From the sequence record PV467748.1: a stretch of 64,000 nt of DNA. One strand, 5' to 3'. Positions 8,114 to 39,578 of the stretch are shown piece after piece; position 1 is the first letter of the stretch; every line of letters begins with the position of its first letter. The notes under the pieces were generated by a model. The model was not told the origin of the DNA. It saw nothing but the letters and a program-made list of their open reading frames with translations, and searched no databases. Source of the DNA: a phage. The translations under genes were made by a program, and so were the position numbers.

Positions 8114-8168
8114 TTCTCCTCATGTGTTGATAGGATAGACTATAACACGTGAGGAGAGGAAGTAAACA
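8114..8168 (-). promoter_or_regulatory. early promoter cassette (PeSL-like): -35 GTTTAC, 17-bp spacer, -10 TATAGT, inverted-repeat arms ctcctcatgtg/cacgtgaggag enclosing the SD
   Basis: Plus sequence ctcctcatgtgttgataggatagactataacacgtgaggagaggaagtaaacac; member of the repeated family. Confidence 0.6.
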
Positions 8169-8486
8169 CTAATCTTCAATTAAATCTTGGTCATAACCAA
8201 GTTCAATCAAAAGTGACTTAAAGGCAGGAATATTTTCTATTTTCTTATTATCGACAAATATGACAGGATAGCGTATCGCTAAGCTCTTGAAGCCTGCACG
8301 TTTGGCCAATGATACTATAAGAGGCTTGTCATATACTGCGCCTGACAGCGTCTGGTTAATCACAGGATAGAAAGTATGTGGGATAGAAAGGGAATTTAGG
8401 AGCGATAGAACAGCAATGCACCCTGGACAGCGCATGACTGTCTCAGGGATACCGTAAATCTCAATTTTAGTTAACTTTTGGTCCAC
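8169..8486 (-). CDS. nrdH: glutaredoxin/thioredoxin-like redoxin (NrdH-like)
   Basis: 105-aa track ORF with CPGC active-site motif near the N-terminus; lies between 55 and 49 where T4 carries nrdH. Confidence 0.6.
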   Translation of the reverse strand: MDQKLTKIEIYGIPETVMRCPGCIAVLSLLNSLSIPHTFYPVINQTLSGAVYDKPLIVSLAKRAGFKSLAIRYPVIFVDNKKIENIPAFKSLLIELGYDQDLIED

Positions 8487-8763
8487 AGGAAATAACTCCT
8501 TGGTAGTCCCAGGTTTTTAGAACTTCGTCTTCATTAGTTCCGTACGGAACGTAAATCTGGATAAGGAACCCGGTATCATCAAAAGAGAAGTAGACAGTAG
8601 GTTTAATACCATGAATCTCTGACAGAGCATAGATGTCCTTGAGGTCTTCTTCCTTATCTTTAAAGAATTCTTGGTTCAGGTCACAGTCATGGAAGTACCA
8701 ATCATCACCAAACTTGTCCCATGCGGCCCAATTCAAAGCTACATATTCTTCAAAACGTTTCAT
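8467..8763 (-). CDS. hypothetical protein (98 aa)
   Basis: Track ORF. Confidence 0.45.
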   Translation of the reverse strand: MKRFEEYVALNWAAWDKFGDDWYFHDCDLNQEFFKDKEEDLKDIYALSEIHGIKPTVYFSFDDTGFLIQIYVPYGTNEDEVLKTWDYQGVISCGPKVN

Positions 8764-8975
8764 TCTTTCACCTTCATCATTTTTACTATAACACTATGAA
8801 CAGCCTGGATTCGTTTGTTGAACTCAGACCCTTCAAGACCCTTTTCAGTACTCAGAGCACCAATAATCACGAACAGCAATCCAAACGGAATAGCCAGGAT
8901 TAAAAGGCACACGATAAACAGAACCAATGTAATATTGGCCAGGATATCAGAAACAGCATTACGAAATTTATTCAT
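8760..8975 (-). CDS. small membrane protein
   Basis: Track ORF 8760..8987 trimmed to ATG (MNKFRNAVSDILANITLVLFIVCLLILAIPFGLLFVIIGAL...); one or two predicted TM helices. Confidence 0.4.
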   Translation of the reverse strand: MNKFRNAVSDILANITLVLFIVCLLILAIPFGLLFVIIGALSTEKGLEGSEFNKRIQAVHSVIVKMMKVKE

Positions 8976-9096
8976 TAAAGAACCCACATATTAGTTACAA
9001 CAAATAACCATTGGGCAGGATACTCAACACCCATAATACGCACTGCATCGTTCAGAGATTCGGCTAAAGCATAAAATGTGTAGCCATAAAAATTAA

Positions 9097-9570
9097 TCAT
9101 TTAAGCGATTTCCTCAGTTGTTTTTTAAATGAACCGACCATTTGTTTCTTTGTGTCAGATTCATTATAAGTCATTCCATGTGAAAGCATTTCAGCAATCA
9201 TTTCTTCCTTACCTAATCTACTGAACTCTTTGGTTTTATCAGTTACAAAGGTAGGGTGAATAGGATTCTTGGAGCAATCATTCTCGAGGTACGCAACTAG
9301 ATTTTTAAGACACTCGAGGTAGTCGTTGCCACGACCTTTAAGACCAGAGCGTACAAATTGGTGTCTGCTGCGTCCTTCCCAGGCGTTACAAAGATTACAG
9401 AGCAACCCACGAACTCGTCCGGCTTGTGGCCCTTCTAAATCATGAGAGTGGTCTAAGTGGTTACTTTGAACATCCGTATTTAGATGTTGTTTACATACTA
9501 AACACAAGCCCTGTTGGTCTTTGTACATCTGTTCTTTTTGTTCTTTATAAAGCTTGCCAGTCAACAACAT
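9097..9570 (-). CDS. 49: endonuclease VII (Holliday-junction resolvase) gp49
   Basis: 157-aa track ORF MLLTGKLYKEQKEQ...GLLCNLCNAWEG...SFKKQLRKSLK matching recalled T4 gp49 in sequence and exact length. Confidence 0.88.
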   Translation of the reverse strand: MLLTGKLYKEQKEQMYKDQQGLCLVCKQHLNTDVQSNHLDHSHDLEGPQAGRVRGLLCNLCNAWEGRSRHQFVRSGLKGRGNDYLECLKNLVAYLENDCSKNPIHPTFVTDKTKEFSRLGKEEMIAEMLSHGMTYNESDTKKQMVGSFKKQLRKSLK

Positions 9571-9606
9571 AATAAAACCCTTACCATTATTAGATAAGGG
9601 TATTTA

Positions 9607-9792
9607 TTATTTTTCGAATGTACTATAAAACGAGCGATGTAATCGTTTAAATTGACGCATCATCTTTTTGGTAGGTCGAGTGTATAACCCTACACAGGTG
9701 GCCATAAACTGGTCAGTAGGACTTCCTTTGATAAGAAGTTTCCAGAACTTTGCGCCATTTAATTTTTCAGTATAAATCAGTTCAGTTTTCAT
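9607..9792 (-). CDS. hypothetical protein (61 aa)
   Basis: Track ORF. Confidence 0.35.
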   Translation of the reverse strand: MKTELIYTEKLNGAKFWKLLIKGSPTDQFMATCVGLYTRPTKKMMRQFKRLHRSFYSTFEK

Positions 9793-9971
9793 CAGAACGG
9801 CCTATCAGCAAAGCGAAGTTGGGCTTCAAGCCAATGGATATAATCAGCTGCAGCTTTAATCAAGCCGGATTCTTCATCAGGTAACTTACGAGAATCTGAC
9901 AATTCATAAAGTGAATGTTCAATCAGACGGCCTTTATGACGGCCAATTTCAATTTTGGTACTCATAGCCAT
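9792..9971 (-). CDS. hypothetical protein
   Basis: Track ORF 9792..9983 trimmed to the first ATG (MAMSTKIEIGRHKG...). Confidence 0.35.
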   Translation of the reverse strand: MAMSTKIEIGRHKGRLIEHSLYELSDSRKLPDEESGLIKAAADYIHWLEAQLRFADRPF

Positions 9972-10090
9972 ATTCCATATCAATTAAATCATTGTTTGAA
10001 GGTTCATTATACTCTATTTCGGAATTGTTGTAAACAGGTTCCTCTGGCTCGGTAGGTTCTATCGTATCCCACCGAGCGACATACCATGGC

Positions 10091-10817: not shown

Positions 10818-10818
10818 T

Positions 10819-11263: not shown

Positions 11264-12270
11264 TTCAACAGCTCCAGAGCTTGTTCAAGACGGTCTAAAC
11301 GATTGGTAGACTCTTCCCAAAGTTTCTTGGCAGCGGTATATTGGCCAGCCAGTTTTTTGTTAATAGCAAGGGCATCTTTATACGCTTTTTCTAAGGCAAC
11401 GATTTCCGGTAACTTGGATTTAGTAATTGGTGTAGGAGCCATGATAGGGCTGTTCAAGTCGTTAATCAAGTCTTCTAATGTAGCAGGCTCTTTATCAGTA
11501 TTCACAATTTCCTCACATTTTTCTTGGTAAATTTCGGCGTCAGTTTTTGGAACAGGGCATTTGATTTCGCGAACTGTTACCAAAACTTCATATCCTTTCC
11601 AGCCTAAGTGGTGTTTAACTTCTTGGGTCTCATATTTCTCTACGGTATCCATCAAAGCTAAGGCTTGTTCGATAGTATTCAAGGTATCGTAAGCAATATC
11701 TTGATACTTTACAACTTCCGCATCATCTTTAGGTTTCCTATTAGGTGACCAAATAACAGAAATAATAGCTTTTCCTTTATAACTATTTGTTTTAATCATG
11801 CAATTAGCCATCGGGTGAATAGTACGGCAATCACCGGAAACTATAGTTTTAGAGGCCGCTTTGAGAATTAATGCAGAGTTAGCCTTGAATTCGCTAACCC
11901 AACGTTGCGGAAATAAACTACTAGGGTCCATACCTTTAATTTTGATATAACTATTTATGGTATCACCAAACCATTTGTAGCTAACAACACGGTTGGAACC
12001 TGGGTGTTTCTCTTTGCCAAACTCTGAAAGGATGTCCTTATTGACCAGTCGCGAAAGCAGTCGAGAACCTTTAAATGTTTTAATGATATCATGAATGCAC
12101 AAACGGCCTGCAATCTTTTCGATTTCAGCTTTGAAACAGCGCGATAATGCATCATCAATTTGGTCGACCCATTTATTGATATTAGAAACTATTACCACAT
12201 ATGGGGTTAATGGAGGGGTATTGGCAGTGATATACGTAGTAAAGGCATTGATGTATTCGGTACGGGTCAT
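11260..12270 (-). CDS. hypothetical protein (~336 aa) with C-terminal coiled coil
   Basis: Track ORF 11260..12330 trimmed to the ATG (MTRTEYINAF...) that follows the promoter cassette and SD GAGGAG; the first 20 track codons are promoter sequence. Confidence 0.5.
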   Translation of the reverse strand: MTRTEYINAFTTYITANTPPLTPYVVIVSNINKWVDQIDDALSRCFKAEIEKIAGRLCIHDIIKTFKGSRLLSRLVNKDILSEFGKEKHPGSNRVVSYKWFGDTINSYIKIKGMDPSSLFPQRWVSEFKANSALILKAASKTIVSGDCRTIHPMANCMIKTNSYKGKAIISVIWSPNRKPKDDAEVVKYQDIAYDTLNTIEQALALMDTVEKYETQEVKHHLGWKGYEVLVTVREIKCPVPKTDAEIYQEKCEEIVNTDKEPATLEDLINDLNSPIMAPTPITKSKLPEIVALEKAYKDALAINKKLAGQYTAAKKLWEESTNRLDRLEQALELLK

Positions 12271-12274
12271 GATA

Positions 12275-12329
12275 TTCTCCTCAGTAGTTGATAAAAGGAT
12301 TATACTCCATCCGTCCTTGGATGTAAACA
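12275..12329 (-). promoter_or_regulatory. early promoter cassette (-35 GTTTAC, ~18-bp spacer, -10 TATAAT)
   Basis: Plus ctcctcagtagttgataaaaggattatactccatccgtccttggatgtaaacat; degenerate family member without clear arms. Confidence 0.5.
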
Positions 12330-13223
12330 TTATTTTAGAGCTAATAGTGCCGCGCGAAGCTTGTCACGTTGGGCTTCCATATTCTTGATGCTATTCAGAA
12401 CGTCTTGAATACTCTTTTTCTCATCTTCAATCTGACCATTTAAACGGTGGATTGATTCCTGAATGCTATCTGCATAATAGGTCTCAATAGGTTTCATCGT
12501 AGGGTTAGTAACAACCAAAGAATTATCAGGTTTAATTTTCCAATGATACGGTTCTGAATTGAATGGCCTCGGCACAGCAGTGGTTTTGAATTTGTCATAA
12601 GTAGCATACTGACCTACAGGCCCATATGACGCAGTGGAGATTCGACGTTCCATTTGTGGTTCCTTTTGTTGGGATTGATAAGGGGCATAAGACAAAAGAT
12701 ATTCACGAGTTAGTTTAACATTAAAATACACCGCATCAGGCCGTCCGGAACAATCAGCATATTCATCGGTTGTAACCTTATATGATTCTACGGCCTTAAT
12801 ACGAGTCATTGCTTCTCTGAATAAGGTTTCGAATGCTTCACGAAGGGCCTTATTGCCTTTTGAGGTAGGACGGAAACGAACTTGGATACCGTCAGCCAGA
12901 ATATTAATGACTAGGTTACGAGCCGTAAAATTAATATTCTTGATATTGACAGGAACCGTAGAAATACGTCCTGCAGTAGCCAAGAGGTCTTTAATATTAG
13001 CTCGTAATGTCGCGCCAAATAAATGAGCTGGGCTACGGCAATAATCGTTCAAAGAACTAATATAAGTTCCTTTACGGCCTACGCCGTAAGTGTAGTTACC
13101 ATTACGAATCTGGCCGAAGTCGGCCAGCCGATCGATAGCGATACGACGTGTGGTATCAAAATCATATCGGGAATATTCTTTACGCGTTTTAATGTTCATA
13201 TTAAAGTCCAAATAATTTTTCAT
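12330..13223 (-). CDS. hypothetical protein (297 aa) with C-terminal coiled coil
   Basis: Track ORF; C-terminus ...EAQRDKLRAALLALK. Confidence 0.5.
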   Translation of the reverse strand: MKNYLDFNMNIKTRKEYSRYDFDTTRRIAIDRLADFGQIRNGNYTYGVGRKGTYISSLNDYCRSPAHLFGATLRANIKDLLATAGRISTVPVNIKNINFTARNLVINILADGIQVRFRPTSKGNKALREAFETLFREAMTRIKAVESYKVTTDEYADCSGRPDAVYFNVKLTREYLLSYAPYQSQQKEPQMERRISTASYGPVGQYATYDKFKTTAVPRPFNSEPYHWKIKPDNSLVVTNPTMKPIETYYADSIQESIHRLNGQIEDEKKSIQDVLNSIKNMEAQRDKLRAALLALK

Positions 13224-14440: not shown

Positions 14441-14964
14441 TATGCGAGAACCGTCTTTAAACGCTCTTCAAATTTCTGAAGCAGAGCTTGGCGTTCAACT
14501 CGTTGTGATTTGTACTGCTCGATACGACCTGAAGTGAGGGCGTACTGTTCGTTTACTGATTCCCGCATGAATTCAGGAATCTCTTTACAAGCTTTGATTT
14601 CGTCAAACTTATCAATAACAGCTTGTTGTTCGGCAATCAGATTATCGAAATAAGCGATATCAGATTTAACGTTTGCCAGGTCGGATTCAGTAGGCATTAA
14701 ACGTTTGTTACGTTCAGCTTGATAAGCTTGATTGTTTTCACGACTCCAGTGAAGAGTACGTTTTTTGTTAGTGTTTTTATAGAGCTCTACAATACCAACT
14801 GAATCGATGACTGCAATCCAGTTCCAACGGCTTTTGTAAATCTCTCCTCCAGATACGGTAATCTCATTACCACAAGCAACGTCGTTAAAGAACTTGCTTT
14901 GTTTTTCAGATTTGAAATTACCATTGTTAAAATTAATCAGTGAAAAAATATCTTTAGCGTTCAT
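14440..14964 (-). CDS. hypothetical protein (174 aa)
   Basis: Track ORF directly downstream of the promoter cassette 14969-15020. Confidence 0.5.
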   Translation of the reverse strand: MNAKDIFSLINFNNGNFKSEKQSKFFNDVACGNEITVSGGEIYKSRWNWIAVIDSVGIVELYKNTNKKRTLHWSRENNQAYQAERNKRLMPTESDLANVKSDIAYFDNLIAEQQAVIDKFDEIKACKEIPEFMRESVNEQYALTSGRIEQYKSQRVERQALLQKFEERLKTVLA

Positions 14965-14968
14965 GATA

Positions 14969-15020
14969 ACCTCCAGTAGTTGATAGGTCTATAGTATCAT
15001 TTCTACTGGAGATGTAAACA
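14969..15020 (-). promoter_or_regulatory. early promoter cassette (PeSL-like): -35 GTTTAC, 17-bp spacer, -10 TACTAT, perfect 9-bp arms ctccagtag/ctactggag
   Basis: Plus cctccagtagttgataggtctatagtatcatttctactggagatgtaaaca. Confidence 0.65.
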
Positions 15021-15021
15021 A

Positions 15022-15363
15022 CTAATAGAAACTTTTTTCACCTGCTTGACCACTAAACCATGCGGATTGAGTGTTCTCTTTCCGTTGGTGTTTAATACGA
15101 ATAAGGTATTCGTTCCTGATGGCGCAGAGTTCATCTCTGAAGTCGACTGCCAACTTAACCTGCTTACGGTCTAGATTTATTAAGGCCTGGGTCTTCGCGG
15201 CCAAGGCCAGTCTCTTGTAGTCTCCTTCTTCACAATCGGTTTTGTAAACCTTCTCGGCGAATTGGTGTTTAAATTCATTATCATAGTCTTCAATAGACTG
15301 TTTCATGGCATTAGAGTATTTCAACTCTGCTTTTATAAGGTCATAACTAAATTGTTCGAACAT
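15022..15363 (-). CDS. hypothetical protein (113 aa)
   Basis: Track ORF. Confidence 0.45.
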   Translation of the reverse strand: MFEQFSYDLIKAELKYSNAMKQSIEDYDNEFKHQFAEKVYKTDCEEGDYKRLALAAKTQALINLDRKQVKLAVDFRDELCAIRNEYLIRIKHQRKENTQSAWFSGQAGEKSFY

Positions 15364-15373: not shown

Positions 15374-16354
15374 TTATTTCAGAAGTGTAACTTCAGCGAT
15401 TTCGCTCCAGTCATTTTTATCGGTGGCAATGAAGTCCGCCAGATAAAGAGCCGTACGTAATGATACGTTACGAAGACGAGATACATTGGCCTTCATCCAT
15501 GCTAGAGCTTGATAAGTCTCAGCATCAGTCAGACCTCGGTTTTGCATCATATCAGTGGACAGGATAACGTCTTCAACACGAACCATAATCTCTTCATTCG
15601 AGTGAACTCCGAGGTCTAAGTAAACTGAACGAGATACTAAAGCCTGGAGGTGTGGAGCAAGTTTAGTGCCGCGTTCTAATTCACGGTCAATATCAACGTT
15701 GGTGATGAACACGATGGTGCCTTCATATTCGAATTCTTTATCGATATTTTTATCATCGAGGTAAGAACTTGAAGTGCTCCAGCACACCTTACGTTTTTCA
15801 CCGGTATCCAATGCCGCTTTTAACAGGTTCAGGATATCCATATCAGAGAATACATCGACATCATCGATAAGAAGAACACTATTAGGGCCGCGGTTATTCC
15901 AAAGCTGCTCGTAAAGACCGATTCCACTAATCTTTCCGTTGATTGATTTATATTCGATAGTTTCATTTTCGTGGGCATTCTGTAATGCTTTATCCAAAGA
16001 ATACGTTTTACCAATACCTGCGGCACCAGAGATGATAAGGGAACGAATTTTACCATCGATGATTCCGTTAGTCATCATGTTCATTACTTTAAAACGTTTG
16101 TTGATGCGGTGTTTCATTTCTTCAGCGGATTCAGTAACCACTACAGGAGCTTCAGCACCTTCCATTTCAACATCACATTTGAACACCCATATACCACGTT
16201 CAACACCATCAATCTGTACGAATACCTTGCCATCACCGAGGTGAGCTTCGGATTCATGAATTTTATTAGGGAACCAGGTTTTACCTGAACTCATGAACGT
16301 ACCAGAGATTTCATTACCGCGATAGATACCTTTGTTGATTTTGATAGTTAACAT
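15374..16354 (-). CDS. P-loop ATPase (AAA-like core)
   Basis: Track ORF 15374..16477 trimmed to the ATG (MLTIKINKG...) after SD GGAGAATATA; Walker A GAAGIGKT, Walker B VLLIDDVD, sensor-like FITN. Confidence 0.6.
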   Translation of the reverse strand: MLTIKINKGIYRGNEISGTFMSSGKTWFPNKIHESEAHLGDGKVFVQIDGVERGIWVFKCDVEMEGAEAPVVVTESAEEMKHRINKRFKVMNMMTNGIIDGKIRSLIISGAAGIGKTYSLDKALQNAHENETIEYKSINGKISGIGLYEQLWNNRGPNSVLLIDDVDVFSDMDILNLLKAALDTGEKRKVCWSTSSSYLDDKNIDKEFEYEGTIVFITNVDIDRELERGTKLAPHLQALVSRSVYLDLGVHSNEEIMVRVEDVILSTDMMQNRGLTDAETYQALAWMKANVSRLRNVSLRTALYLADFIATDKNDWSEIAEVTLLK

Positions 16355-16359
16355 TATAT

Positions 16360-16422
16360 TCTCCGTTTCACTCAGTAGATTTGATAGGTCCATAATAACA
16401 TGCTCTACGAGGTTGTAAACAC
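16360..16422 (-). promoter_or_regulatory. early promoter cassette (-35 GTTTAC, 17-bp spacer, -10 TATTAT)
   Basis: Plus ...ctcagtagatttgataggtccataataacatgctctacgaggttgtaaac. Confidence 0.55.
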
Positions 16423-16439
16423 TTTTTTGCACTAAACCC

Positions 16440-16462
16440 AAAAAAAGGACCCCGAAGGGTCC
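16440..16462 (-). terminator. intrinsic terminator (GGACCC-TTCG-GGGTCC then T7 on minus strand)
   Basis: Plus aaaaaaaggaccccgaagggtcc. Confidence 0.6.
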
Positions 16463-16686
16463 TAAATTGCGCTCCAATAATTATGGAAGCGGATATTATT
16501 GATAGCCCAGTTAATACAACGTCTTATCTGCTTAGTCGTAGGCTTGCATACGTACTTGAAATTGATTCTTCTACCGGTTTCTCTACAAACTACTTCAAGA
16601 TACCAACGACAGGTTTTATGAGGTCTTCCATATGACAGGAAAACCTTGATTTCTTCTTTAACGGTAATAAGAGTTGTGGTTGTCAA
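16462..16686 (-). CDS. small basic Cys-rich protein (74 aa)
   Basis: Track ORF; four Cys (CRW...C...C...C); overlaps the 3' end of the upstream gene by 29 nt. Confidence 0.35.
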   Translation of the reverse strand: MTTTTLITVKEEIKVFLSYGRPHKTCRWYLEVVCRETGRRINFKYVCKPTTKQIRRCINWAINNIRFHNYWSAI

Positions 16687-19203: not shown

Positions 19204-19440
19204 TCACCAGTATTTGTTGATGGTAGAAATCAATTCTTGGGCTTGAGTAGTCTTCAGCTTACACCCACAACCCTTTAATGTATCTTTAAGGAGCCATGGT
19301 TCCTTGAGCTCGTCCTTTTCTAGGCGAATTCTGTATCCTCGATAATCGACAAAGATGCTTTGGTCGTCGAATATCTTAACCTCAAGAAGGCGGTTATTAA
19401 TTTCATATTCTAATGAAACCGTAGTACTTGTAAGTTTCAT
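19204..19440 (-). CDS. hypothetical protein (78 aa)
   Basis: Track ORF directly downstream of promoter cassette 19446-19498, SD GAGGAG. Confidence 0.5.
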   Translation of the reverse strand: MKLTSTTVSLEYEINNRLLEVKIFDDQSIFVDYRGYRIRLEKDELKEPWLLKDTLKGCGCKLKTTQAQELISTINKYW

Positions 19441-19445
19441 TTTGT

Positions 19446-19498
19446 TCTCCTCATTAGTTGATAGGTCTATAGTATCACGTTCCTAGAGGATGTAAACA
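19446..19498 (-). promoter_or_regulatory. early promoter cassette (PeSL-like): -35 GTTTAC, 17-bp spacer, -10 TACTAT, imperfect arms
   Basis: Plus tctcctcattagttgataggtctatagtatcacgttcctagaggatgtaaaca. Confidence 0.6.
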
Positions 19499-19506
19499 CC
19501 TAAACG

Positions 19507-19532
19507 AAAAAAGGTCCCACCGAAGTGAGACC
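19507..19532 (-). terminator. intrinsic terminator (GGTCTCAC-TTCG-GTGGGACC then T6 on minus strand)
   Basis: Plus aaaaaaggtcccaccgaagtgagacc. Confidence 0.6.
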
Positions 19533-19537
19533 TTTGA

Positions 19538-23625: not shown

Positions 23626-24084
23626 TTAAAGATAGATTACTTTCGTGCTGGTTTTACCTTCTAAACGTTTAGAGTTAACAAATGCCATACGACATTTTAA
23701 TGAATATCCTTTATCAGGATGTTTACGATCTACGGTCATACCCAACCATAAGGTTTTATCGGTAATCTCGAGACGCAGTGGGCGATACACTTTACCAGGG
23801 ACAATTTCAGATTCTATGTCAGGAAGAGGCTCCTGGATTAAAAATTCATGGATTTCTTTAACATGATTGTGGAGCTTCTTGAACAAAGAGAAAACGTATT
23901 TTTCGTCAATTTCACGTTGGATAGCACGGTCCAACAGGTGATTAGAGTACTTAATAAAGAAAGCTGGGACCCCGCTCTTGATGGCGGCTTTTTTGATGGA
24001 CGCGTTAAGTTCACGAAATTCGGTTTCGAACTGACGACGTAATTTGTTGCGGCGGATGAATACTTCTGAATTAATTTCTGACAT
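23626..24084 (-). CDS. regB: endoribonuclease RegB
   Basis: 152-aa track ORF MSEINSEVFIRRNKLRRQFETEFR...LDRAIQREIDEKYVF... closely matching recalled T4 RegB. Confidence 0.88.
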   Translation of the reverse strand: MSEINSEVFIRRNKLRRQFETEFRELNASIKKAAIKSGVPAFFIKYSNHLLDRAIQREIDEKYVFSLFKKLHNHVKEIHEFLIQEPLPDIESEIVPGKVYRPLRLEITDKTLWLGMTVDRKHPDKGYSLKCRMAFVNSKRLEGKTSTKVIYL

Positions 24085-24091
24085 TTTGTAA

Positions 24092-24141
24092 TCTCCTGTA
24101 GTTGATAGGTCTATAGTACCACGTCTACAGGAGATGTAAAC
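24092..24141 (-). promoter_or_regulatory. early promoter cassette (PeSL-like): -35 GTTTAC, 17-bp spacer, -10 TACTAT, perfect arms ctcctgtag/ctacaggag
   Basis: Plus ctcctgtagttgataggtctatagtaccacgtctacaggagatgtaaac, immediately upstream of regB. Confidence 0.65.
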
Positions 24142-24145
24142 TGCT

Positions 24146-24355
24146 TTATTCTTGGAATGGGGTAAGTTTTCCGACAGCAGAACAAATTTCTACCAGCACC
24201 GGATAAAACTCTTTCACCTGTTCAAGGCGCTGGGCTGCGTACTGCAATTCACCTTCTTCAATACAAGCCGTTTGGTCGTCAAGCAAGTATTTGTGGTAGC
24301 CGGTACAGGCTTCACCGATGATGCGTTGGAATTCTTGCAAACTTTCGATTTTCAT
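24146..24355 (-). CDS. hypothetical protein (~69 aa)
   Basis: Track ORF 24146..24397 trimmed to an internal ATG that abuts the upstream stop. Confidence 0.35.
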   Translation of the reverse strand: MKIESLQEFQRIIGEACTGYHKYLLDDQTACIEEGELQYAAQRLEQVKEFYPVLVEICSAVGKLTPFQE

Positions 24356-25810: not shown

Positions 25811-26170
25811 TTAAAGATGGTCGAGTGCCGGGTTATGAGGCTTTTCTGCTTTAGCAGTATTTTTGTGCCAATCTGATTTAGAAACACGAATTGCATCCGC
25901 ACCGTAAGAGCTCTTAAGGAGGCCCTTTTTATTGTAAACACTTATAGAAGTAAGGGTGTCACCATTCCAAGTAGCATGGACGAAGTTGGATTTAGATTTA
26001 AGTTCTTTAGCCAGGCTCTGGTTGGTAGCCATGGAAGCAAAGTCTTTACCTGTAACTTTAAAAACTTCAGATGGGTTCAGCCCTTCTTTAGCCTTAGCCA
26101 ATTGTTCAGGAGACATAGCTTCGTTAATGCGCTGAGTAGATTCAGTAATAAATTGTTGGTAAGTTTTCAT
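25811..26170 (-). CDS. internal-protein-like gene with capsid-targeting sequence (CTS), 119 aa
   Basis: Track ORF starting MKTYQQFITE, matching the T4 internal-protein N-terminal CTS and prohead-protease site pattern [IL]-x-E. Confidence 0.6.
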   Translation of the reverse strand: MKTYQQFITESTQRINEAMSPEQLAKAKEGLNPSEVFKVTGKDFASMATNQSLAKELKSKSNFVHATWNGDTLTSISVYNKKGLLKSSYGADAIRVSKSDWHKNTAKAEKPHNPALDHL

Positions 26171-26212
26171 ATTATTCCTTAAGTTGATAGAAGTATTCTA
26201 TCACGGATTTAA

Positions 26213-26629
26213 TTAAGCGTAAATAGCCTTGCCGTAATGTTTGTACCAGGTAGGACGCTGTGCAATTTTTTCGTCCAAACGAGCTTGTGAAATGGCGATA
26301 GAAGCTTCGTGAGGAACATAATCACCACGGAATTCCTGAGGAATGTCACTAATGTCCTGGACCGTAGTATCCTTGATATTAAAGCCACGTTTTAAACATT
26401 CAGCTATAAGCTCAATTTGACGCTTACGTAAAAATTCAAGCTTATCATAAAAGAATGTAACGTGGCCTGTACCAAGGATAAAAGTAGGACTGATTTTAAA
26501 ATCACGAACACGTTTACCGTTAGCAACATGCTTACGAACTGCACCGAAAACACGTGGTAATTCACGATATTCGGCCATTAAGTGTTGGTCAGCCAATTCA
26601 GATACTAAGGTAAGGTTGATACGAGTCAT
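26213..26629 (-). CDS. denV: endonuclease V (pyrimidine-dimer DNA glycosylase) DenV
   Basis: 138-aa track [37 protein letters not shown]... essentially identical to recalled T4 DenV. Confidence 0.92.
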
Positions 26630-26635
26630 TTTTAA

Positions 26636-26686
26636 TCTCCTGTAGTTGATAGGTCTATAGTATCATGCCTACAGGAGATGTACACT
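26636..26686 (-). promoter_or_regulatory. early promoter cassette (PeSL-like): -35 GTGTAC, 17-bp spacer, -10 TACTAT, perfect arms ctcctgtag/ctacaggag
   Basis: Plus ctcctgtagttgataggtctatagtatcatgcctacaggagatgtacac, immediately upstream of denV. Confidence 0.6.
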
Positions 26687-26711
26687 GCTTTTTATCTATA
26701 AGAGGGCTTTA

Positions 26712-27308
26712 TTAATTACCACGGGCTGCATTAGCAACGGCGTAAGCGTACTGAACATTAGCGTCTTTAAACGTACCTTTAGAGGTATCTATTTCTGCCT
26801 TAAAGCCACCTTTAGCCATAACATCAGCAAATTCTTTACGGAAAGCCATTGCATCAAGACCTTTCCATGTTGATTTGTGCTTGGCAAATTCAAGACCGGC
26901 GAAGTTGACAGCCTTAGCCAATTTATTATCAATAGTCCATTTACCTGCTTTAGGTACAACTACCGGGCCTTTCTGTTTAGAGAACAGTTTTAAATTCCAG
27001 CGACGAAGGTCGCCGTCAGCTTTAACAAAAGCTGCGTCCAAGTTACTAGCAACAACATCCTGAATATGGCCAAATTTAAGCCCATCAGCTTCAATATTTA
27101 GGTCGTTACGCCAGCGAAGTCCTTCCCAGGCGAAAGCTTTAAAGTCAGAAGCTTTTGTAGCTAAGTACCGTTCAATAGGAGCTGTTTTAGCATCAAAACC
27201 GTTTCCTGGGCGATCAACGCCGTTTCCTCGGTAAGTCCACTCATCTTTATTAATGCCTTGGACCTTTCCTACAGAAGCTTCGGCGATAAATTCTTTATAC
27301 GTTTTCAT
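26712..27308 (-). CDS. internal-protein-like gene with CTS (198 aa; ipII position)
   Basis: Track ORF starting MKTYKEFIAE; lies between denV and e where T4 carries ipII/ipIII. Confidence 0.6.
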   Translation of the reverse strand: MKTYKEFIAEASVGKVQGINKDEWTYRGNGVDRPGNGFDAKTAPIERYLATKASDFKAFAWEGLRWRNDLNIEADGLKFGHIQDVVASNLDAAFVKADGDLRRWNLKLFSKQKGPVVVPKAGKWTIDNKLAKAVNFAGLEFAKHKSTWKGLDAMAFRKEFADVMAKGGFKAEIDTSKGTFKDANVQYAYAVANAARGN

Positions 27309-27324
27309 ACGGGTTCCTTAAAGG

Positions 27325-27390
27325 TAAATATTTTAATTGGTCTGTTCAAGTAACTGTATATATACTATCACAATTCTAGGAGATGTAAAC
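27325..27390 (-). promoter_or_regulatory. degenerate early promoter (-35 GTTTAC, 17-bp spacer, -10 TAGTAT) overlapping the 3' end of the upstream IP-like gene
   Basis: Minus-strand read GTTTACATCTCCTAGAATTGTGATAGTAT.... Confidence 0.45.
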
Positions 27391-27789
27391 TTATTTGTAA
27401 GTTTTCATCCAATTCTTGAACAAAGCCGCGACGTCTTTCTCTTTAACGTTCAGTTTAACGTCCAGCATTTTGCCACCAGCGGCACGTGTCTGACGAATCT
27501 TAGCCGTACCGGTTTCGCCGTTCCACTCAACATAATACTGTCCGGTGTTCATAGCGATACCATCGCCATAGTCTTCATTTTTAGAAGTGGTGAATGCCAG
27601 CTTCATAGTCTTAGATACACGAGCCTGCATGCCTGACTGTAGAGCGTTACGAACGCGAATAACCTGAGGAGTGGCCTGGGTCAGGTTCTCGTTCAGTTCT
27701 TCGGTGAACTCTTCGGATTCGAACATCGCCAAAAGTTCTTTAGATGCAGGAACTACATTCTCTGCGATAAATTCATTATAAGTTTTCAT
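27391..27789 (-). CDS. internal-protein-like gene with CTS (132 aa; ipIII position)
   Basis: Track ORF starting [10 protein letters not shown]; ends ...KNWMKTYK*, a CTS-like remnant at the 3' end. Confidence 0.6.
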
Positions 27790-28270: not shown

Positions 28271-28274
28271 AATA

Positions 28275-30269: not shown

Positions 30270-30482
30270 TTACTTTTTGTTGAAAAAGTACATTTTACCT
30301 TTAGGAGATAAGGATACACGAAGGGCGTTACCAATACCAACTGAACATTTAACCAGGTCAGCAGATTTCAATTCACCAAATGCTTGACGAAGGTCTCCAT
30401 CACGGGTGTTAACCATCAGGCATTTAGCACCAGCTGCACGAACTTCGTTTAACATGTTGATTGCTTGGTTAGAAAGTTTCAT
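30270..30482 (-). CDS. hypothetical protein (~70 aa)
   Basis: Track ORF 30270..30560 starts at TTG within promoter sequence; trimmed to the ATG (MKLSNQAINML...) after SD GGAGAATAAA. Confidence 0.45.
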   Translation of the reverse strand: MKLSNQAINMLNEVRAAGAKCLMVNTRDGDLRQAFGELKSADLVKCSVGIGNALRVSLSPKGKMYFFNKK

Positions 30483-30493
30483 TTTATTCTCCA

Positions 30494-30551
30494 TTTCACT
30501 CTGTTGTTTTGATAGGTCTATAGTATCACACCTATAGACCTTGTACACTGT
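30494..30551 (-). promoter_or_regulatory. early promoter cassette variant with internal 10-bp palindrome aggtctatag/ctatagacct (-35 GTGTAC, -10 TACTAT)
   Basis: Plus ctctgttgttttgataggtctatagtatcacacctatagaccttgtacac. Confidence 0.55.
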
Positions 30552-30560
30552 TTTGTGCAA

Positions 30561-31520
30561 TTATTTTTCGAAAGGACGAATTAAATGATGGTTATCTTGG
30601 AAACGCTTGATGTAGTCGTTTTCACCTAAAGTCTTATACATATTCACTACAGCTTGGTAGTTTTCCCAGGCGTACTCGCGGAACCAACCTGAAGTGATTG
30701 AGGTACACACTTTCTCAAGAGCCATATAAAAACTTAATGATGGTGAAATATTGAAATCATTAGGAACCTGTGAACGTTCTAGTGCCAGGACACAAGTTTC
30801 TTCATATACACCAGCCAGTTTAATAGCTTCAGGCAAAGCCTCGAACTTCTCACGAGAGGTCATGACTTCAGAACCTTCCTTCATATAAAAGGTATATGCA
30901 GGGCGTCCAGCCAATGCTACTGCTTCATGAATAGAGTCATGGTCCAGCGTATAAATGGTATCATTAAAGAACGATGATTTGTTTACGTCCAATTTAGGGT
31001 GAGAATAGCTCAACGTTTCTTTTTGACGTTGCAACATAATTTCCTGGAGTTCTTCGTTCAGGGTGATACCTTTATTACGAAGGTATTTGATGTGGGACAT
31101 AGTTTTCAAGAAGAACGGATTATTCTTCAGGAAACGATGAGAGGTTTTGATAGCCAGACAGATATCAGGGGTTGCCCAATAGAAACCAGTAAGACGGTCC
31201 TTTTTAATATGATTTTCAGCATATTTCAGGAGACGATAGCTTGAAGTGAAATCTTCGTCTTGAAGCTCACCGGTAATTTCTCGTACGTTAGTCAGGGCAC
31301 GAACGATATAAGCTTCAAAATAGGTTTCTTTACCGTTGTACATGCATTTAAAAGCCTGGACATCAGGGTTATCCACAGGAACATGAGCGCCGAACATACG
31401 TGCTTTAAAGTGATTCCATGAGCCTTGGTCGGCAATGAAATCCCAATCAGAATTTTCGATATGCTTACTTTCAATCAGACCTGCGTGGTGCAGTGCACGA
31501 GAACCAATAACTAGCATCAT
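30561..31520 (-). CDS. hypothetical protein (319 aa); N-terminal GS...SDWDF motif loosely resembles a nucleotidyltransferase loop
   Basis: Track ORF MMLVIGSRALHHAGLIESKHIENSDWDFIAD...; assignment weak. Confidence 0.45.
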   Translation of the reverse strand: MMLVIGSRALHHAGLIESKHIENSDWDFIADQGSWNHFKARMFGAHVPVDNPDVQAFKCMYNGKETYFEAYIVRALTNVREITGELQDEDFTSSYRLLKYAENHIKKDRLTGFYWATPDICLAIKTSHRFLKNNPFFLKTMSHIKYLRNKGITLNEELQEIMLQRQKETLSYSHPKLDVNKSSFFNDTIYTLDHDSIHEAVALAGRPAYTFYMKEGSEVMTSREKFEALPEAIKLAGVYEETCVLALERSQVPNDFNISPSLSFYMALEKVCTSITSGWFREYAWENYQAVVNMYKTLGENDYIKRFQDNHHLIRPFEK

Positions 31521-31721: not shown

Positions 31722-31961
31722 TTAAATTTCAGCAACGTAATCGTTATGCAATTCCCACATATCATCAGAATTATTCTTAATGATAGGAATTATCTCATTA
31801 GAGATTTCTTCTGCATAAGGGTCATTGATACAGTGAGCATCTTCAAAACTAACACCGTAATCAGACTTCTTATAGGCAAAGCCATAAATCTTTTTAAACT
31901 TGACACGACTAATTCGTACCGGCTCATCAGACTTATCAGACAATGGAGAGTAATACCACAT
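31722..31961 (-). CDS. hypothetical protein (79 aa)
   Basis: Track ORF. Confidence 0.45.
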   Translation of the reverse strand: MWYYSPLSDKSDEPVRISRVKFKKIYGFAYKKSDYGVSFEDAHCINDPYAEEISNEIIPIIKNNSDDMWELHNDYVAEI

Positions 31962-32002
31962 ATGTTCTCCTCGTTTGTGTAGGGTAATAGTAACATGATT
32001 TT

Positions 32003-32332
32003 CTAGAGTTGTACATCACTTCTGCAATATTCTAAAAATAATTTATCATTGTCTACTGTATCCCAACGACGCCAAGATGGGTTCCAGACCAAAGCGTTGT
32101 CACCACAATCATTGAGCTTAAAATGGTCGTAGTACATAGCTATATGTCTGGTTTCGTCGCCAGAGAACCCTAGTATAGGCTCACCATGAGTATGATACAT
32201 ATGATGGTGCATTGAGAGGTCGCATTTGTAAAACATCTCACGTTTACCACGAATGAACAAGAAAGCTTGACCATTCATATAGAATTCTTTATCTGTTTTC
32301 AAAAGATATTTGAATACCGAATCTTTATGCAT
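32003..32332 (-). CDS. hypothetical His-rich protein
   Basis: Track ORF 32003..32347 trimmed to ATG (MHKDSVFKYL...); contains HHHMYHTH. Confidence 0.4.
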   Translation of the reverse strand: MHKDSVFKYLLKTDKEFYMNGQAFLFIRGKREMFYKCDLSMHHHMYHTHGEPILGFSGDETRHIAMYYDHFKLNDCGDNALVWNPSWRRWDTVDNDKLFLEYCRSDVQL

Positions 32333-34546: not shown

Positions 34547-35140
34547 TTACTTAAGTGAATTAATGTAGTCTTCGATATCAGCAGAAGTCGTATCCATTCC
34601 AACTTGTGGGCCTTTAAACGTTTCTACACGAAGCAGGGTATCTTCAATATCAATCTTAGTCAGTGCAGCGATTTCAACAACATCATCGGCAGTAGCAATA
34701 CCAAGGGCAGCCATATTACGAGTTTCACGGATGTACTCGAGCTTAACGGCTAGTTCCTGACGGGAGTCATCAAGTTCCTTGACCTTCAGTTTAATTTCAT
34801 TACGCATTTCGATATAATCATCGGCTTTCTTACGAAGTTGAGTAGCCGTACGACGGTAAAGGAGGCCAAGTTTAGCATGCACCTGAACATCAGAGCCTTC
34901 TTTAATCAGTTTACGAATTTCGCGTTCTTTAGAACTAGCCAGTTGGTCTTTTTCGTTAGCAAGTTCACGAATACGTTTTTCTTCATTCACCGACTTAACA
35001 TGAGCAGTCTGGAGTTCAGTAATTTTATCAATCAGGGTAGAAGCAGCTTTAGTATACTGGTCTTCGATTGACAGGTTCTGAGTCATTGCGGTACCCAGTT
35101 TAGAACGGATGAACTCAACAATTTTCTTTAAAGTATTCAT
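34547..35140 (-). CDS. coiled-coil protein (~198 aa), possibly PspA/IM30-like
   Basis: Track ORF 34547..35215 trimmed to the ATG ([15 protein letters not shown]...) after SD GAAGGAAATACT; long heptad-rich helices; family assignment tentative. Confidence 0.4.
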
Positions 35141-35159
35141 AGTATTTCCTTCAGTTGGT

Positions 35160-35216
35160 TGGTATTTTGTAATCCATGAGGACATTATACCCTGTCCTCT
35201 GAGGGGTGTAAACATT
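35160..35216 (-). promoter_or_regulatory. early promoter (-35 GTTTAC, 18-bp spacer, -10 TATAAT) with arms GAGGAC/GTCCTC flanking the -10
   Basis: Minus-strand read GTTTACACCCCTCAGAGGACAGGGTATAATGTCCTCATGG. Confidence 0.55.
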
Positions 35217-35218
35217 TT

Positions 35219-35617
35219 TTATTTCATTTTTGCTAGGCAGATTTCATTGGCTTCCCATTGAGCTTGCTTAATAATAGCTTTGGATACAGGAACCCTTTGG
35301 CCATAAGTTTTTGACGTTGAGAGAACAATGTATTTGTTTGCTTCATTATGCCAGCCCCGTGATTTTTCGCCATGGGTGCCTTTAACTACAGCTGACACCT
35401 CAACAGAGCAACCACCATCAGAAATCTTGGTTTCGACAATCCATTCATTTCTCTCAGCAGCTTCAAGTTCCAATCTAGTTTTTTCTTCATACATCGCGGC
35501 CCAATCAGTTTTTGCCAAGTTGAAAGTAAGAGCTTTCTCTAATTCTTTGGCATATTTTTGTTGTTCAGGTGTTAATGAATTATACAACTCTTGCATTTCT
35601 TTATCTTCGATATTCAT
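35219..35617 (-). CDS. hypothetical protein (132 aa)
   Basis: Track ORF. Confidence 0.45.
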   Translation of the reverse strand: MNIEDKEMQELYNSLTPEQQKYAKELEKALTFNLAKTDWAAMYEEKTRLELEAAERNEWIVETKISDGGCSVEVSAVVKGTHGEKSRGWHNEANKYIVLSTSKTYGQRVPVSKAIIKQAQWEANEICLAKMK

Positions 35618-35675
35618 TATGTTCTCCTCAAATTATGGGCTCATAATATCTTAATCATGGGCCCATGTAAACGTT

Positions 35676-35942
35676 TTATTTCATATTATTGAAATAATCT
35701 TCCGCATCAAAATCATTATCATGATAAACTTTGGTAGACAATTTAACATAACCTTCGGCAGCGAACATATTAACCACAACCTTTACAGTATACCATTGTC
35801 CATCATCTTCATTACCCATTACTGCATAGGTTTCATACACCGGGTGTTCAGGACCGACAACCTTAATATCGTTAACTGTGGCACCAAATTCTTCCGGAAC
35901 ACATTTCATAAAGAAATTAAACACTTCACCATAATTATCCAT
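35676..35942 (-). CDS. hypothetical protein (~88 aa)
   Basis: Track ORF 35676..35957 trimmed to ATG (MDNYGEVFNFF...) after SD GGAGAGTAAA. Confidence 0.45.
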   Translation of the reverse strand: MDNYGEVFNFFMKCVPEEFGATVNDIKVVGPEHPVYETYAVMGNEDDGQWYTVKVVVNMFAAEGYVKLSTKVYHDNDFDAEDYFNNMK

Positions 35943-35948
35943 TTTACT

Positions 35949-36007
35949 CTCCTTCACTCTGTTGTTTTGATAGGTCTATAGTATCATGTTCTACGAAAGA
36001 GTAAACA
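35949..36007 (-). promoter_or_regulatory. early promoter cassette (-35 GTTTAC, 17-bp spacer, -10 TACTAT); leader shared with cassette at 30494
   Basis: Plus cactctgttgttttgataggtctatagtatcatgttctacgaaagagtaaacatc. Confidence 0.6.
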
Positions 36008-36028
36008 TCTTTTTAAACCTTTTAGAAA

Positions 36029-36057
36029 CAAAAAAGGCCCAACCTTTCGGAAGGGCC
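36029..36057 (-). terminator. intrinsic terminator (GGCCC...CCTTCCGAAAGG...GGGCC then T6 on minus strand)
   Basis: Plus aaaaaaggcccaacctttcggaagggcc. Confidence 0.6.
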
Positions 36058-36062
36058 TAGAA

Positions 36063-37651: not shown

Positions 37652-37656
37652 GTAGT

Positions 37657-37733
37657 TGGTGACCCAGACCAGATTTGAACTGGTAACCTTTCCCTTATGA
37701 GGGGACTGCTGCTAACCATTGAGCTACAGGGCC
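37657..37733 (-). tRNA. tRNA with CAU anticodon (Ile-lysidine type or Met)
   Basis: Minus-strand GGCCCTGTAGCTCAATGGTTAGCAGCAGTCCCCTCATAAGGGAAAGGTTACCAGTTCAAATCTGGTCTGGGTCACCA; anticodon loop CTCATAA; T-arm ACCAG-TTCAAAT-CTGGT. Confidence 0.6.
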
Positions 37734-38295: not shown

Positions 38296-38582
38296 TGCGG
38301 CCACATATTAATGTAATCAAGTTTAATAGAAGCAATCTTCAAAGGATTTTTAAAGATGTCGTATTCGACCAATCCGTTTTCAGTTGCGGTGTAGAAAGTA
38401 AAGTTAACAGAATTATAACGGCGACCATTAACTTTTAGTTTAACGTCGCTTGAACTACGACCAATATTAACCTGTTGGACATCAAGCACAGCATCTTTGC
38501 CAAAGTTGCGAATCAGTAGCTCTGCTGCAACCTGGTCTGAATTATATCCATTCTCTGGATTAGTAACCTTAACGTATAACAT
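38292..38582 (-). CDS. hypothetical protein (96 aa)
   Basis: Track ORF. Confidence 0.45.
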   Translation of the reverse strand: MLYVKVTNPENGYNSDQVAAELLIRNFGKDAVLDVQQVNIGRSSSDVKLKVNGRRYNSVNFTFYTATENGLVEYDIFKNPLKIASIKLDYINMWPQ

Positions 38583-38984
38583 TTAACCCTCGTCTACAAT
38601 AGTATGGGTATTAGCATTAACAATCTGCCACCAGTCAAAACGATCGGAGCCGTAAAGAAACTTATTCTCGTTTTCTTTAACAATTTCACGTAGTTCATCT
38701 TCAGTGGCAGCTTTAGCGATTAAATCGGTATAGCCACCACGTGGATAGTAGTTATCACCCGCGAACAGAAGGAAATTTACTTTACCAGAAGGAACATATG
38801 CTTCCTTAGGATACTTGTTTCCTGCTTGGTCTACCACTTCAATATAACGGTAAGGAATATCAGTACTTTCAACCCATTGCCAAGCCGCAGCAGGGGATTC
38901 AAAAGCATCTACACCTAAACGGTTATCTTCATCTTTAGACGGATTATTTTCATAATCCGCATATACATAATATTCAACGTTCAT
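38583..38984 (-). CDS. hypothetical protein (133 aa)
   Basis: Track ORF. Confidence 0.45.
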   Translation of the reverse strand: MNVEYYVYADYENNPSKDEDNRLGVDAFESPAAAWQWVESTDIPYRYIEVVDQAGNKYPKEAYVPSGKVNFLLFAGDNYYPRGGYTDLIAKAATEDELREIVKENENKFLYGSDRFDWWQIVNANTHTIVDEG

Positions 38985-39169
38985 TATTCACCTTTAGAGA
39001 TTTTATCCATAACGAAAGAAATTGAACCAATTAAGAATGCCACTACTAAAGAAATTATATTCTCGGAAGTTGAAAGCATATCGAGCATGAATCCTGTAAA
39101 CATACTAAAGCCAAAAGCGGTAACAGCGGCCAGTGCAGTAACATTTCTAATTAATTCACAACGTTTCAT
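38984..39169 (-). CDS. small membrane protein (~61 aa)
   Basis: Track ORF 38984..39181 starts at TTG; trimmed to ATG (MKRCELIRNVTALAAVTAFGFSMFTGFMLDM...). Confidence 0.45.
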   Translation of the reverse strand: MKRCELIRNVTALAAVTAFGFSMFTGFMLDMLSTSENIISLVVAFLIGSISFVMDKISKGE

Positions 39170-39184
39170 TTTATTCTCCAATCA

Positions 39185-39236
39185 CTCATTTGTTTTGATA
39201 GGACTATAGTACCATCACTAAAGCCCGTTGTAAACA
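39185..39236 (-). promoter_or_regulatory. early promoter cassette variant (-35 GTTTAC, -10 TACTAT)
   Basis: Plus tcactcatttgttttgataggactatagtaccatcactaaagcccgttgtaaaca. Confidence 0.55.
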
Positions 39237-39237
39237 A

Positions 39238-39510
39238 TTATTTTAAATAAATTGCATATTTTTTATAACCAGCTGTCTCGTGGCGCAGCCCTTTTTCATT
39301 AGCAAAACGTTCAATATTATTGATTTGATTCTGGTCAAGTTCTGACGTGTCAAATACAAAAAAGTTTCGCTTGTTGCCTAAAGTTACATGATTAGTCAAA
39401 TCGATGTTATAGAGATGATTTATATTATCAATCATGGTCTTAACAGATTTGTTAATTTTTGCTTCTTCATTAAGAATAGATTCAGCGATAAATTCTTGAT
39501 AAGTTTTCAT
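39238..39510 (-). CDS. internal-protein-like gene with CTS (~91 aa)
   Basis: Track ORF 39238..39555 trimmed to ATG giving MKTYQEFIAESILNEE.... Confidence 0.55.
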   Translation of the reverse strand: MKTYQEFIAESILNEEAKINKSVKTMIDNINHLYNIDLTNHVTLGNKRNFFVFDTSELDQNQINNIERFANEKGLRHETAGYKKYAIYLK

Positions 39511-39519
39511 TTTGATTTC

Positions 39520-39578
39520 CGTGTGGTTGGTTTGTTTTGATAGGTCTATAGGCATGATACTATAGACCTTGTAAACAC
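39520..39578 (-). promoter_or_regulatory. early promoter cassette variant with internal palindrome aggtctatag/ctatagacct (-35 GTTTAC)
   Basis: Plus ttttgataggtctataggcatgatactatagaccttgtaaacacc. Confidence 0.5.

Follow-up and report, generated by a model that had tools for sequence, protein, structure and literature searches.

The 64,000-nt stretch of the phage sequence record PV467748.1 analysed here (hereafter the window, numbered along one strand from 5' to 3') contains a recurrent minus-strand element which ends in the Shine-Dalgarno (SD) sequence and the ATG start codon of the gene that follows. Very probably these cassettes serve a T4-type phage, a Dhakavirus, as its early promoters. 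An original prediction made from the sequence had listed a recurrent minus-strand promoter element at 13 coordinates, and a T4-type early promoter running into SD and ATG was indeed found at all of them (13/13). Elements of this kind are already known, either as T4-type early promoters or as the promoter-early stem-loop (PeSL) elements of T-even phages; what is new is their occurrence in Dhakavirus.

Judged from its sequence, the window can be assigned to a Dhakavirus of the JS98/JS10/QL01 kind, a T4-like coliphage of the JS98 group. It shares 92-96% identity with the Dhakavirus genomes QL01, WG01, MX01, AnYang, JS10 and a Salmonella phage, and a 14-kb slice of it matched about a thousand T4-like phage records, with Dhakavirus giving the best matches. 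The proteins of JS10 are collinear with the minus strand from position 1 to ~43,200 and give the gene order 45/rpbA/46, 55, nrdH, 49, nrdC, mobD, tk, vs, regB, denV, ipIII, e, tRNAs, 57, 1, 3, 2, 4, while baseplate genes are located on the plus strand from 43.2 kb. Based on this collinearity and gene order the cassettes fall into what is classically the early region of T4-type genomes. All copies are confined to the 43 kb taken up by small early genes, the 20-kb late-gene part being free of them, which agrees with the predicted location in a hyperplastic region; a scan of the plus strand and of the late-gene part (43.3-64 kb) of the window revealed no good copy. This pattern of location is that of one 64-kb window.

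A regular-expression scan for a T4-type promoter followed by SD and open reading frame (ORF) detected 19 minus-strand sites, 17 of them intergenic and two within ORFs (Table 1). The 13 entries of the predicted family of at least 13 members are among them, and the prediction had missed the intergenic copies 7172, 26224, 32016 and 35672 as well as the in-ORF elements 7463 and 10035 (names such as 7172 or 39576 give the position of the -35 G on the minus strand). The promoter part consists of an A-rich upstream region, a -35 hexamer GTTTAC that reads GT(T/G)TAC across the cassettes, a spacer of 17-18 nt, TGn and a -10 hexamer TAnnnT. Towards the 3' end follow the -10 in its extended form TGnTAYTAT, the discriminator AGACCT, which is conserved, an A within ATCAA as the predicted start, a leader of 24-53 nt and an SD which is usually GGAG and leads into an A-rich tail. 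The A fraction of the 22 nt upstream of the -35 is 0.44 as compared to a background of 0.32 (p<1e-4; 0/10,000 random samples reached 0.44), and TG precedes the -10 at 24140, 19496, 15018, 16419, 8166 and 39234. SD and start codon of the downstream gene were observed at the 3' end of the element in 17/17 intergenic copies. Between the end of the -10 and the ATG lie 24-53 nt (median 29), and the element is always on the coding strand, so that the placement relative to gene starts is non-random, as the prediction had implied.

The strict pattern GTTTAC-N16-18-TACTAT was found five times as compared to 0.03 expected occurrences, and the 17-mer core TAYTATRGACCTATCAA, with one mismatch allowed, eight times as compared to 0.00, with all eight on the minus strand (8/8). 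Furthermore, a repeat search made without any prior returned the element as the three largest direct-repeat families (D1-D3). A scan of the window with the generic sigma-70 consensus showed no enrichment (63 versus about 59 expected); only the T4-specific pattern, not the generic sigma-70 consensus, is informative here. The search for AGACCTATCAA with two mismatches (31 found, 21.6 expected) was not informative; this motif is absent at 27325 and 35160 and present in diverged versions at 8114 and 12275.

The copies had been described as near-identical and as carrying GTTTAC and TACTAT. This holds for the core, which is common to eight copies, and for the five copies with the strict pattern; however, the mean pairwise identity of the 13 listed elements over 84 nt is 51% (range 36-77%), and at 39520, for example, the -10 position reads GCCTAT. 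Several copies had furthermore been placed directly downstream of an intrinsic terminator. A canonical terminator directly upstream was detected at three copies (Table 1), the rest being without one, and the usual stem-loop of the family is an inverted repeat within the promoter rather than an upstream terminator.

The identification of the cassettes rests on the comparison with T4, for which the identical promoter scan was run on the homologous 50 kb of the T4 genome. About 12 of the 19 positions (12-13 junctions) are syntenic with T4 elements found in this way, the common junctions being nrdC.4, nrdC.8, nrdC.10, regB, denV, ipIII, e.6, e.7, e.8, trna.4, the internal-protein locus (ipI), 55.6 and 55.4. 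In the latter case the element 7463, which precedes 55.4 in T4, has remained within the 55.5 ORF of the window, where 55.4 is deleted. The T4 denV element, GTTTAC ATCTCCTGTAGGTATGA TACTAT AGACCTATCAACTACAGGAGAAC, has a core 100% identical to that of the window's cassette and is near-identical to the window copies of denV, regB and nrdC.8. The cassettes also match the published promoter consensus of the T4/PST-type PeSLs, TTTACW-N17-TAYWAT (PMC4122927). Taking the consensus match and the shared junctions together, the identification as PeSL or T4-type early promoter was right, and the kind of element is not a new one.

The T4 early promoters have been described as 'uber' promoters of the UP/-35/TGn/-10 type with additional conserved positions (PMC2988021), and a typical early promoter precedes T4 regB (PMC3014915). 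The window cassettes resemble them in the -35 GTTTAC, the 17-18 nt spacer, TGn, TAnnnT, the A-rich upstream region, TATCAAC around the start and the junctions occupied. They differ in the discriminator, which is ACAACT in several T4 copies and mostly AGACCT in the window, and in the hairpin arms embedded in the promoter, whose sequences differ at orthologous sites.

With the T4/PST PeSLs (Comeau, Arbiol and Krisch 2014; PMC4122927) and the PeSL-like elements described for the internal-protein loci of T-even phages (Repoila et al. 1994, cited after PMC2839356) the cassettes share the succession of early promoter, stem-loop, SD and ATG, AT-rich stems of variable size, a location among small non-essential early genes including the internal-protein loci, and some crossovers inside the element. 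A figure legend of 2014 puts the T4/PST stem-loops just upstream of the promoter (PMC4122927), whereas in the window, and in T4 according to the present scan, the commonest stem-loop begins in the spacer between -35 and -10 and closes over the -10 or the SD. Dhakavirus is not catalogued in these PeSL papers, where JS98 is named only for the g43 locus. The PeSLs of RB49 and phi1 (Arbiol et al. 2010; PMC2839356) likewise have stem-loops between -35 and -10 or overlapping the -10, and excision or insertion between flanking cassettes. They differ in their near-perfect sigma-70 hexamers TTGACA/TATAAT and polyG/polyC stems as opposed to the -35 GT(T/G)TAC and the AT-rich stems of the window, and none of their five subclasses has the SD as 3' arm (PMC2839356). 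The authors regard the T-even elements, T4 early promoters with weaker AT-rich stem-loops, as analogues and not homologues of the RB49/phi1 PeSLs (PMC2839356). By their sequence features the window cassettes are to be assigned to the T-even type and are thus analogues of the RB49 type.

In most copies an inverted repeat has its 5' arm in the spacer between -35 and -10 and its 3' arm over the -10/discriminator or over the SD. The copies 7172, 30548, 35213, 35672, 39235 and 39576 have the 3' arm over the -10 or the discriminator; in 30548 it spans the last 4 nt of the -10 plus the discriminator. In a second class (8167, 15019, 24141, 26685; weaker 12328, 19497, 36006) the 3' arm is formed by the SD itself and stops 3-6 nt short of the ATG. 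In the regB cassette (24141) the stem encloses the -10, the predicted start and the leader, and the SD GGAG is buried; the pairing in the 55.6 cassette (8167) corresponds to a duplex energy of -18.3 kcal/mol (minimum free energy -21.1, z -6.1).

The complementarity is specific to the copy. Duplexes of a cassette's own spacer with its own -10-to-ATG segment have a mean energy of -11.7 kcal/mol versus -8.0 kcal/mol for mismatched pairs, and 0/20,000 permutations were as low (p<5e-5); the identical test in T4 gave -11.7 versus -7.1, again with 0/20,000 permutations. The own-duplex energy is -12 kcal/mol or lower in 11/19 copies, and dinucleotide-shuffle z-scores range from -2.8 to -6.1 in seven copies. 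Moreover, compensatory changes were observed at the e.7-like orthologues, where the arms read ATGGGC/GCCCAT in the window, ACGGGC/GCCCGT in AnYang and ATAGGC/GCCTAT in T4. The regB promoters of six lineages all retain a hairpin beginning in the spacer (6/6) with arm sequences unrelated to one another, and the T4 regB and nrdC.8 promoters show spacer-SD pairing with other sequences. The arm sequences vary from copy to copy, for which reason the possibility of a site bound by a sequence-specific protein was rejected.

Gene e served as positive control for the hairpin approach. Its late promoter motif TATAAATA leads straight into a hairpin AUACCUCCU-AUACUC-AGGAGGUAU (28262-28310, minus strand) which buries the lysozyme SD, and the classical translational control of T4 e thus appears to be conserved in the window. 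T4 e, soc, 49 and I-TevI are reportedly controlled by a promoter inside a hairpin that sequesters the ribosome-binding site, as work by McPheeters and co-workers from 1986 and related studies are said to have described. A mobE hairpin is also cited in PMC3014915. The cassettes 8167, 15019, 24141 and 26685 resemble this type of control, the window's own version of which is located at 28270-28300, in that the predicted start lies inside the SD hairpin and only RNA initiated upstream could fold. They differ in that the known internal promoter is late or middle and the early read-through silent, whereas the internal promoter of the window cassettes is itself a predicted early one. Only the general occurrence and the covariation of the spacer-anchored hairpin, its SD-burying form included, go beyond the literature consulted; the function proposed for it is a putative one.

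The cassettes presumably work as follows. Host sigma-70 RNA polymerase would fire at them right after infection, so that each downstream gene would have its own immediate-early transcript. GGAG occurs in the SD region of 12/17 cassette genes and of 8/84 other genes (p=4e-7). The nuclease RegB cleaves GGAG with an A-rich sequence after it, a combination that constitutes a strong RegB/S1 site, and RNA in a secondary structure is protected from cleavage (PMC3014915). The transcript from the gene's own promoter, with GGAG and A-rich tail, may therefore be a target of phage RegB, which would end its translation early. Since the predicted start is located downstream of the 5' arm, the hairpin would as RNA form only in read-through transcripts and could insulate the units from one another. 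For the SD class (8167, 15019, 24141, 26685) one would expect read-through RNA to be shielded from RegB and not to be translatable at the gene concerned, and translation would proceed only from the gene's own early transcript. For the class with the 3' arm over the -10 or discriminator a role of the hairpin as intercistronic attenuator or 3' stabiliser, as proposed for RB49, seems more plausible. If insulation holds, each early gene would be confined to a short expression window.

Several observations weigh against this functional reading. A convincing hairpin is missing in 6/17 intergenic cassettes and is thus not obligatory. The position of the 3' arm (SD or -10) at the orthologous regB promoter varies by lineage, so that SD sequestration cannot be the function in all cases. 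The stems consist almost entirely of Watson-Crick pairs, and of 12 stems the sense strand is the more stable in five and the antisense strand in seven; this strand symmetry does not tell a role in RNA apart from one in DNA. A T-run after the embedded hairpins was looked for and found at no copy, and therefore they are not canonical intrinsic terminators. Furthermore, the start sites, early timing, RegB cleavage and hairpin role on which the scheme builds are themselves predicted ones. It is a tentative idea, and one we would sooner doubt than adopt, that the spacer-anchored repeat is a general selected insulation device of T4-type early promoters, which would keep own transcripts translatable and open to RegB and read-through transcripts silent and RegB-resistant, or that it has a DNA-level part in early-promoter shut-off.

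The embedded stem-loops might instead act as terminators or attenuators of upstream transcription and not as translational insulators, as has been proposed for the RB49/phi1 PeSLs, where one RB49 stem-loop cut downstream lacZ expression as strongly as rrnB T1 (PMC2839356). Their constant location at the 3' end of the upstream cistron would fit, and both positional classes could serve. We nevertheless consider this possible rather than likely in view of the missing U-tract after every embedded hairpin, the short (8-15 bp) and AT-rich stems and the loop of about 28 nt in the SD class; at the three cassettes that own a separate canonical terminator just upstream a second one would be redundant.

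The original prediction had also connected the cassettes with the shuffling of genes. The 43-kb early block was aligned to nine relatives, which yielded 66 distinct indel or replacement events; events >2 kb that arose where the alignment chain was broken for some relatives by a 127-nt tandem duplication were dropped, and the many ~100-nt deletions of one IMG/VR contig (155,101 nt), which resemble assembly artefacts, were excluded. The shuffling role was partly borne out, namely by four cassette-by-cassette recombinants among the nine relatives. JS10 carries a hybrid of the cassettes 36006 and 35672 and has lost e.8. In JS10 and JS98-like phages the 16420 cassette is duplicated and flanks an extra ORF. 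One relative lost ipIII by a crossover in GTTTACATCTCCT, and another lost 35230-35666 between 23 nt of cassette homology (according to BLAST coordinates only). A privileged role was not demonstrable: the proportion of variable junctions among those with a cassette does not significantly exceed that among the other gene junctions (11/17 versus 39/83, p=0.14).

It seems rather doubtful that the cassettes are PeSLs in the strong sense, namely mobile modules dedicated to recombination, whose main evolutionary role would be to target recombination, excise mini-circles of ORF plus cassette and drive plasticity. Such mini-circles have been demonstrated in RB49/phi1 (PMC2839356). In the window genome 18/66 events have a boundary in the cassette footprints, which make up 3.4% of the sequence (binomial p=2e-7 versus uniform placement), crossovers fall inside cassettes in the four events described, and for six of twelve cassettes the nearest core is that of a same-genome paralogue and not of the T4 orthologue, which suggests some homogenisation. 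However, the enrichment vanishes per junction, also by comparison with the other intergenic gaps of at least 40 nt (11/17 versus 7/12 variable, p=0.51), and indels in the window genome sit at gene boundaries in general. Most events took place via repeats encoding the internal-protein targeting peptide (one of 37 nt), terminator repeats (28 nt), microhomologies of 4-40 nt and homing-endonuclease insertions, so that other repeats recombine as well. Most cassette positions are moreover conserved with T4 and not mobile, and core identity is on average higher between orthologues (0.69) than between paralogues (0.58). The cassettes are thus occasional recombination substrates, not demonstrably privileged ones. 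As repeats they would occasionally serve homologous recombination, by which flanked ORFs are deleted, duplicated or exchanged, without this being a primary function. They explain several gene-content differences among close relatives; since the cassette junctions are not measurably more recombinogenic, the statement that cassettes drive plasticity needs a proper null model.

Further repeats and variable sites were observed in the early block. The genes starting at 26170, 27308, 27789, 37125 and 39510 (minus strand) share a start of about ten residues, MKTY(K/Q)EFI..., similar to the sequence by which T4 internal proteins are targeted to the capsid; it is encoded by direct repeats of 30-40 nt (D5, D6, D9). 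A 37-nt copy of this repeat is the breakpoint of a deletion of Ip8 relative to QL01 and others. The gene ipIII and a neighbouring 132-aa gene are in swapped order in the window (26712-27789) and in JS10 L001 (27361-28397), the order of the window being common to QL01, AnYang and ABTNLS3. Two terminator hairpin copies with 93% identity, 36031-36059 and 37167-37195 (AAAAAGGCCCAACCTTTCGGAAGGGCCTA, plus strand; D19), bracket 1.1 kb which is missing in Salmonella phage ABTNLS3, where the junction is the terminator repeat.

The inverted repeats could also act in the DNA, as hairpins or cruciforms in single-stranded or supercoiled DNA, and be hot spots of recombination or template switching or contribute to the shut-off of early promoters by occlusion of the -10. 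In the copy 39576 (hairpin 39540-39568, AGGTCTATAG-TATCATGC-CTATAGACCT) the 8-nt loop is inverted, reading TATCATGC for the usual GCATGATA, GCGTGATA or GTGTGATA (ten related copies); the orientation of the loop was read from the flanks, as the pattern alone fails with an element that is its own reverse complement except for the loop. The inversion accounts for GCCTAT in place of the -10 TACTAT and probably inactivates this promoter. It looks like a template switch at a DNA hairpin, and an inverted loop with a destroyed -10 is the expected product of intrastrand template switching. The strand-symmetric stems would also suit a DNA-level role, as would the shut-off of the T4 early promoters, the mechanism of which has been described as not understood (PMC3014915, PMC2988021). 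Only a single inversion was found, however, and no protein or topological trigger was identified. In terms of cruciform energetics the ~28-nt loop of the SD class is judged too large for extrusion, and altogether a DNA-level action appears improbable.

Finally, an explanation of the repeats by chance or composition, or as a mobile element without promoter function of the miniature inverted-repeat transposable element (MITE) or repetitive extragenic palindromic (REP) kind, can practically be dismissed in spite of the generic sigma-70 scan being no richer than shuffles, because the specific patterns are enriched (5-8 found, 0.00-0.03 expected), the strand is the coding one in all copies and the distance to the start codon fixed, there is synteny with T4, and the elements have neither terminal inverted repeats nor target duplications nor a family in Rfam.

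The cassettes provide a map of 17-19 early transcription units for the annotation of a Dhakavirus, a genus represented in phage-therapy collections. The hairpins embedded in the promoters provide a lead, given their copy specificity, their covariation across genera and their occurrence in T4 itself.

Table 1. Promoter cassettes and promoter-like elements of the window. Listed, coordinate in the original prediction; copy, position of the -35 G; energies in kcal/mol; z, dinucleotide-shuffle z-score.
Feature	Positions	Strand	Listed	Copy	Characteristics
Cassette of 55.2	7101..7192	-	new	7172	ATG 7103; hairpin GGGACC/GGTCC(T), -10 TATAAT in loop; duplex -14.2
Promoter-like element within 55.5 ORF	7370..7483	-		7463	kept in all relatives and T4
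Cassette of 55.6	8107..8187	-	8114	8167	spacer CTCTCCTCACGTG pairs with SD region CACATGAGGAG
Promoter-like element within 49.1 coding sequence	9963..10055	-		10035	kept in relatives and T4
Cassette of nrdC.4	12268..12348	-	12275		diverged core TATAAT CCTTTTATCAAC; weak hairpin
Cassette of nrdC.8	14962..15039	-	14969	15019	spacer ATCTCCAGTAG pairs with SD region CTACTGGAGGT; -17.8, z -3.6
Terminator, then cassette of nrdC.10	16352..16463	-	16360		terminator 16446-16463
Terminator, then cassette of 78-aa ORF	19438..19535	-	19446		terminator 19510-19535; weak spacer-SD pairing
Cassette of regB	24082..24161	-	24092	24141	11-bp stem ATCTCCTGTAG/CTACAGGAGAT; -18.6, z -3.8
Weaker promoter of 119-aa internal-protein-like gene	26168..26244	-	new	26224	ATTTAC...TAGAAT...TATCAAC; no hairpin
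Cassette of denV	26627..26705	-	26636	26685	stem as in regB copy; -18.7, z -4.35
Cassette of ipIII	27306..27410	-	27325		without AGACCTATCAA; 53-nt leader; hairpin degraded compared with T4 ipIII copy
Cassette of 70-aa ORF	30480..30568	-	30494	30548	10-bp stem AGGTCTATAG/CTATAGACCT; -15.9, z -2.8
Weaker promoter of 79-aa ORF	31959..32036	-	new	32016	ATGTAC...TACTAT; no hairpin
Cassette of e.6	35138..35233	-	35160	35213	stem GAGGAC/GTCCTC, -10 TATAAT in loop; -13.2; without AGACCTATCAA
Cassette of e.7-like ORF	35615..35692	-	new	35672	stem ATGGGC/GCCCAT around -10; z -3.7
Terminator, then cassette of e.8	35940..36059	-	35949	36006	terminator 36031-36059; TTTACTCT pairs with AGAGTAAA beside ATG
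Cassette of trna.4	39167..39255	-	39185	39235	hairpin GGGCT.TAGTG/TACTA.AGTCC, -10 in 3' arm; -12.1
Cassette of internal-protein gene	39508..39596	-	39520	39576	10-bp stem as in 30548; z -5.05

The analysis of the window also revealed a perfect 127-nt tandem duplication at 13827-14080, the length of which is not divisible by 3. It breaks the nrdC.6 homologue up into the ORFs 13404-13967 and 13939-14376, whereas this gene is single and intact in relatives. The duplication may be real or an assembly artefact. A 245-aa ORF (21140-21877, minus strand) between tk and tk.2 is absent in 7/9 relatives; it is annotated as a NUMOD3 DNA-binding protein in ABTNLS3 and is probably an insertion of the homing-endonuclease type. 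The tRNA genes at 37577-37733 (minus strand) number two (Arg-TCT, Met-CAT) as compared to three annotated in JS10 (Arg, Asn, Met), and the tRNA region shows several indels relative to every relative.

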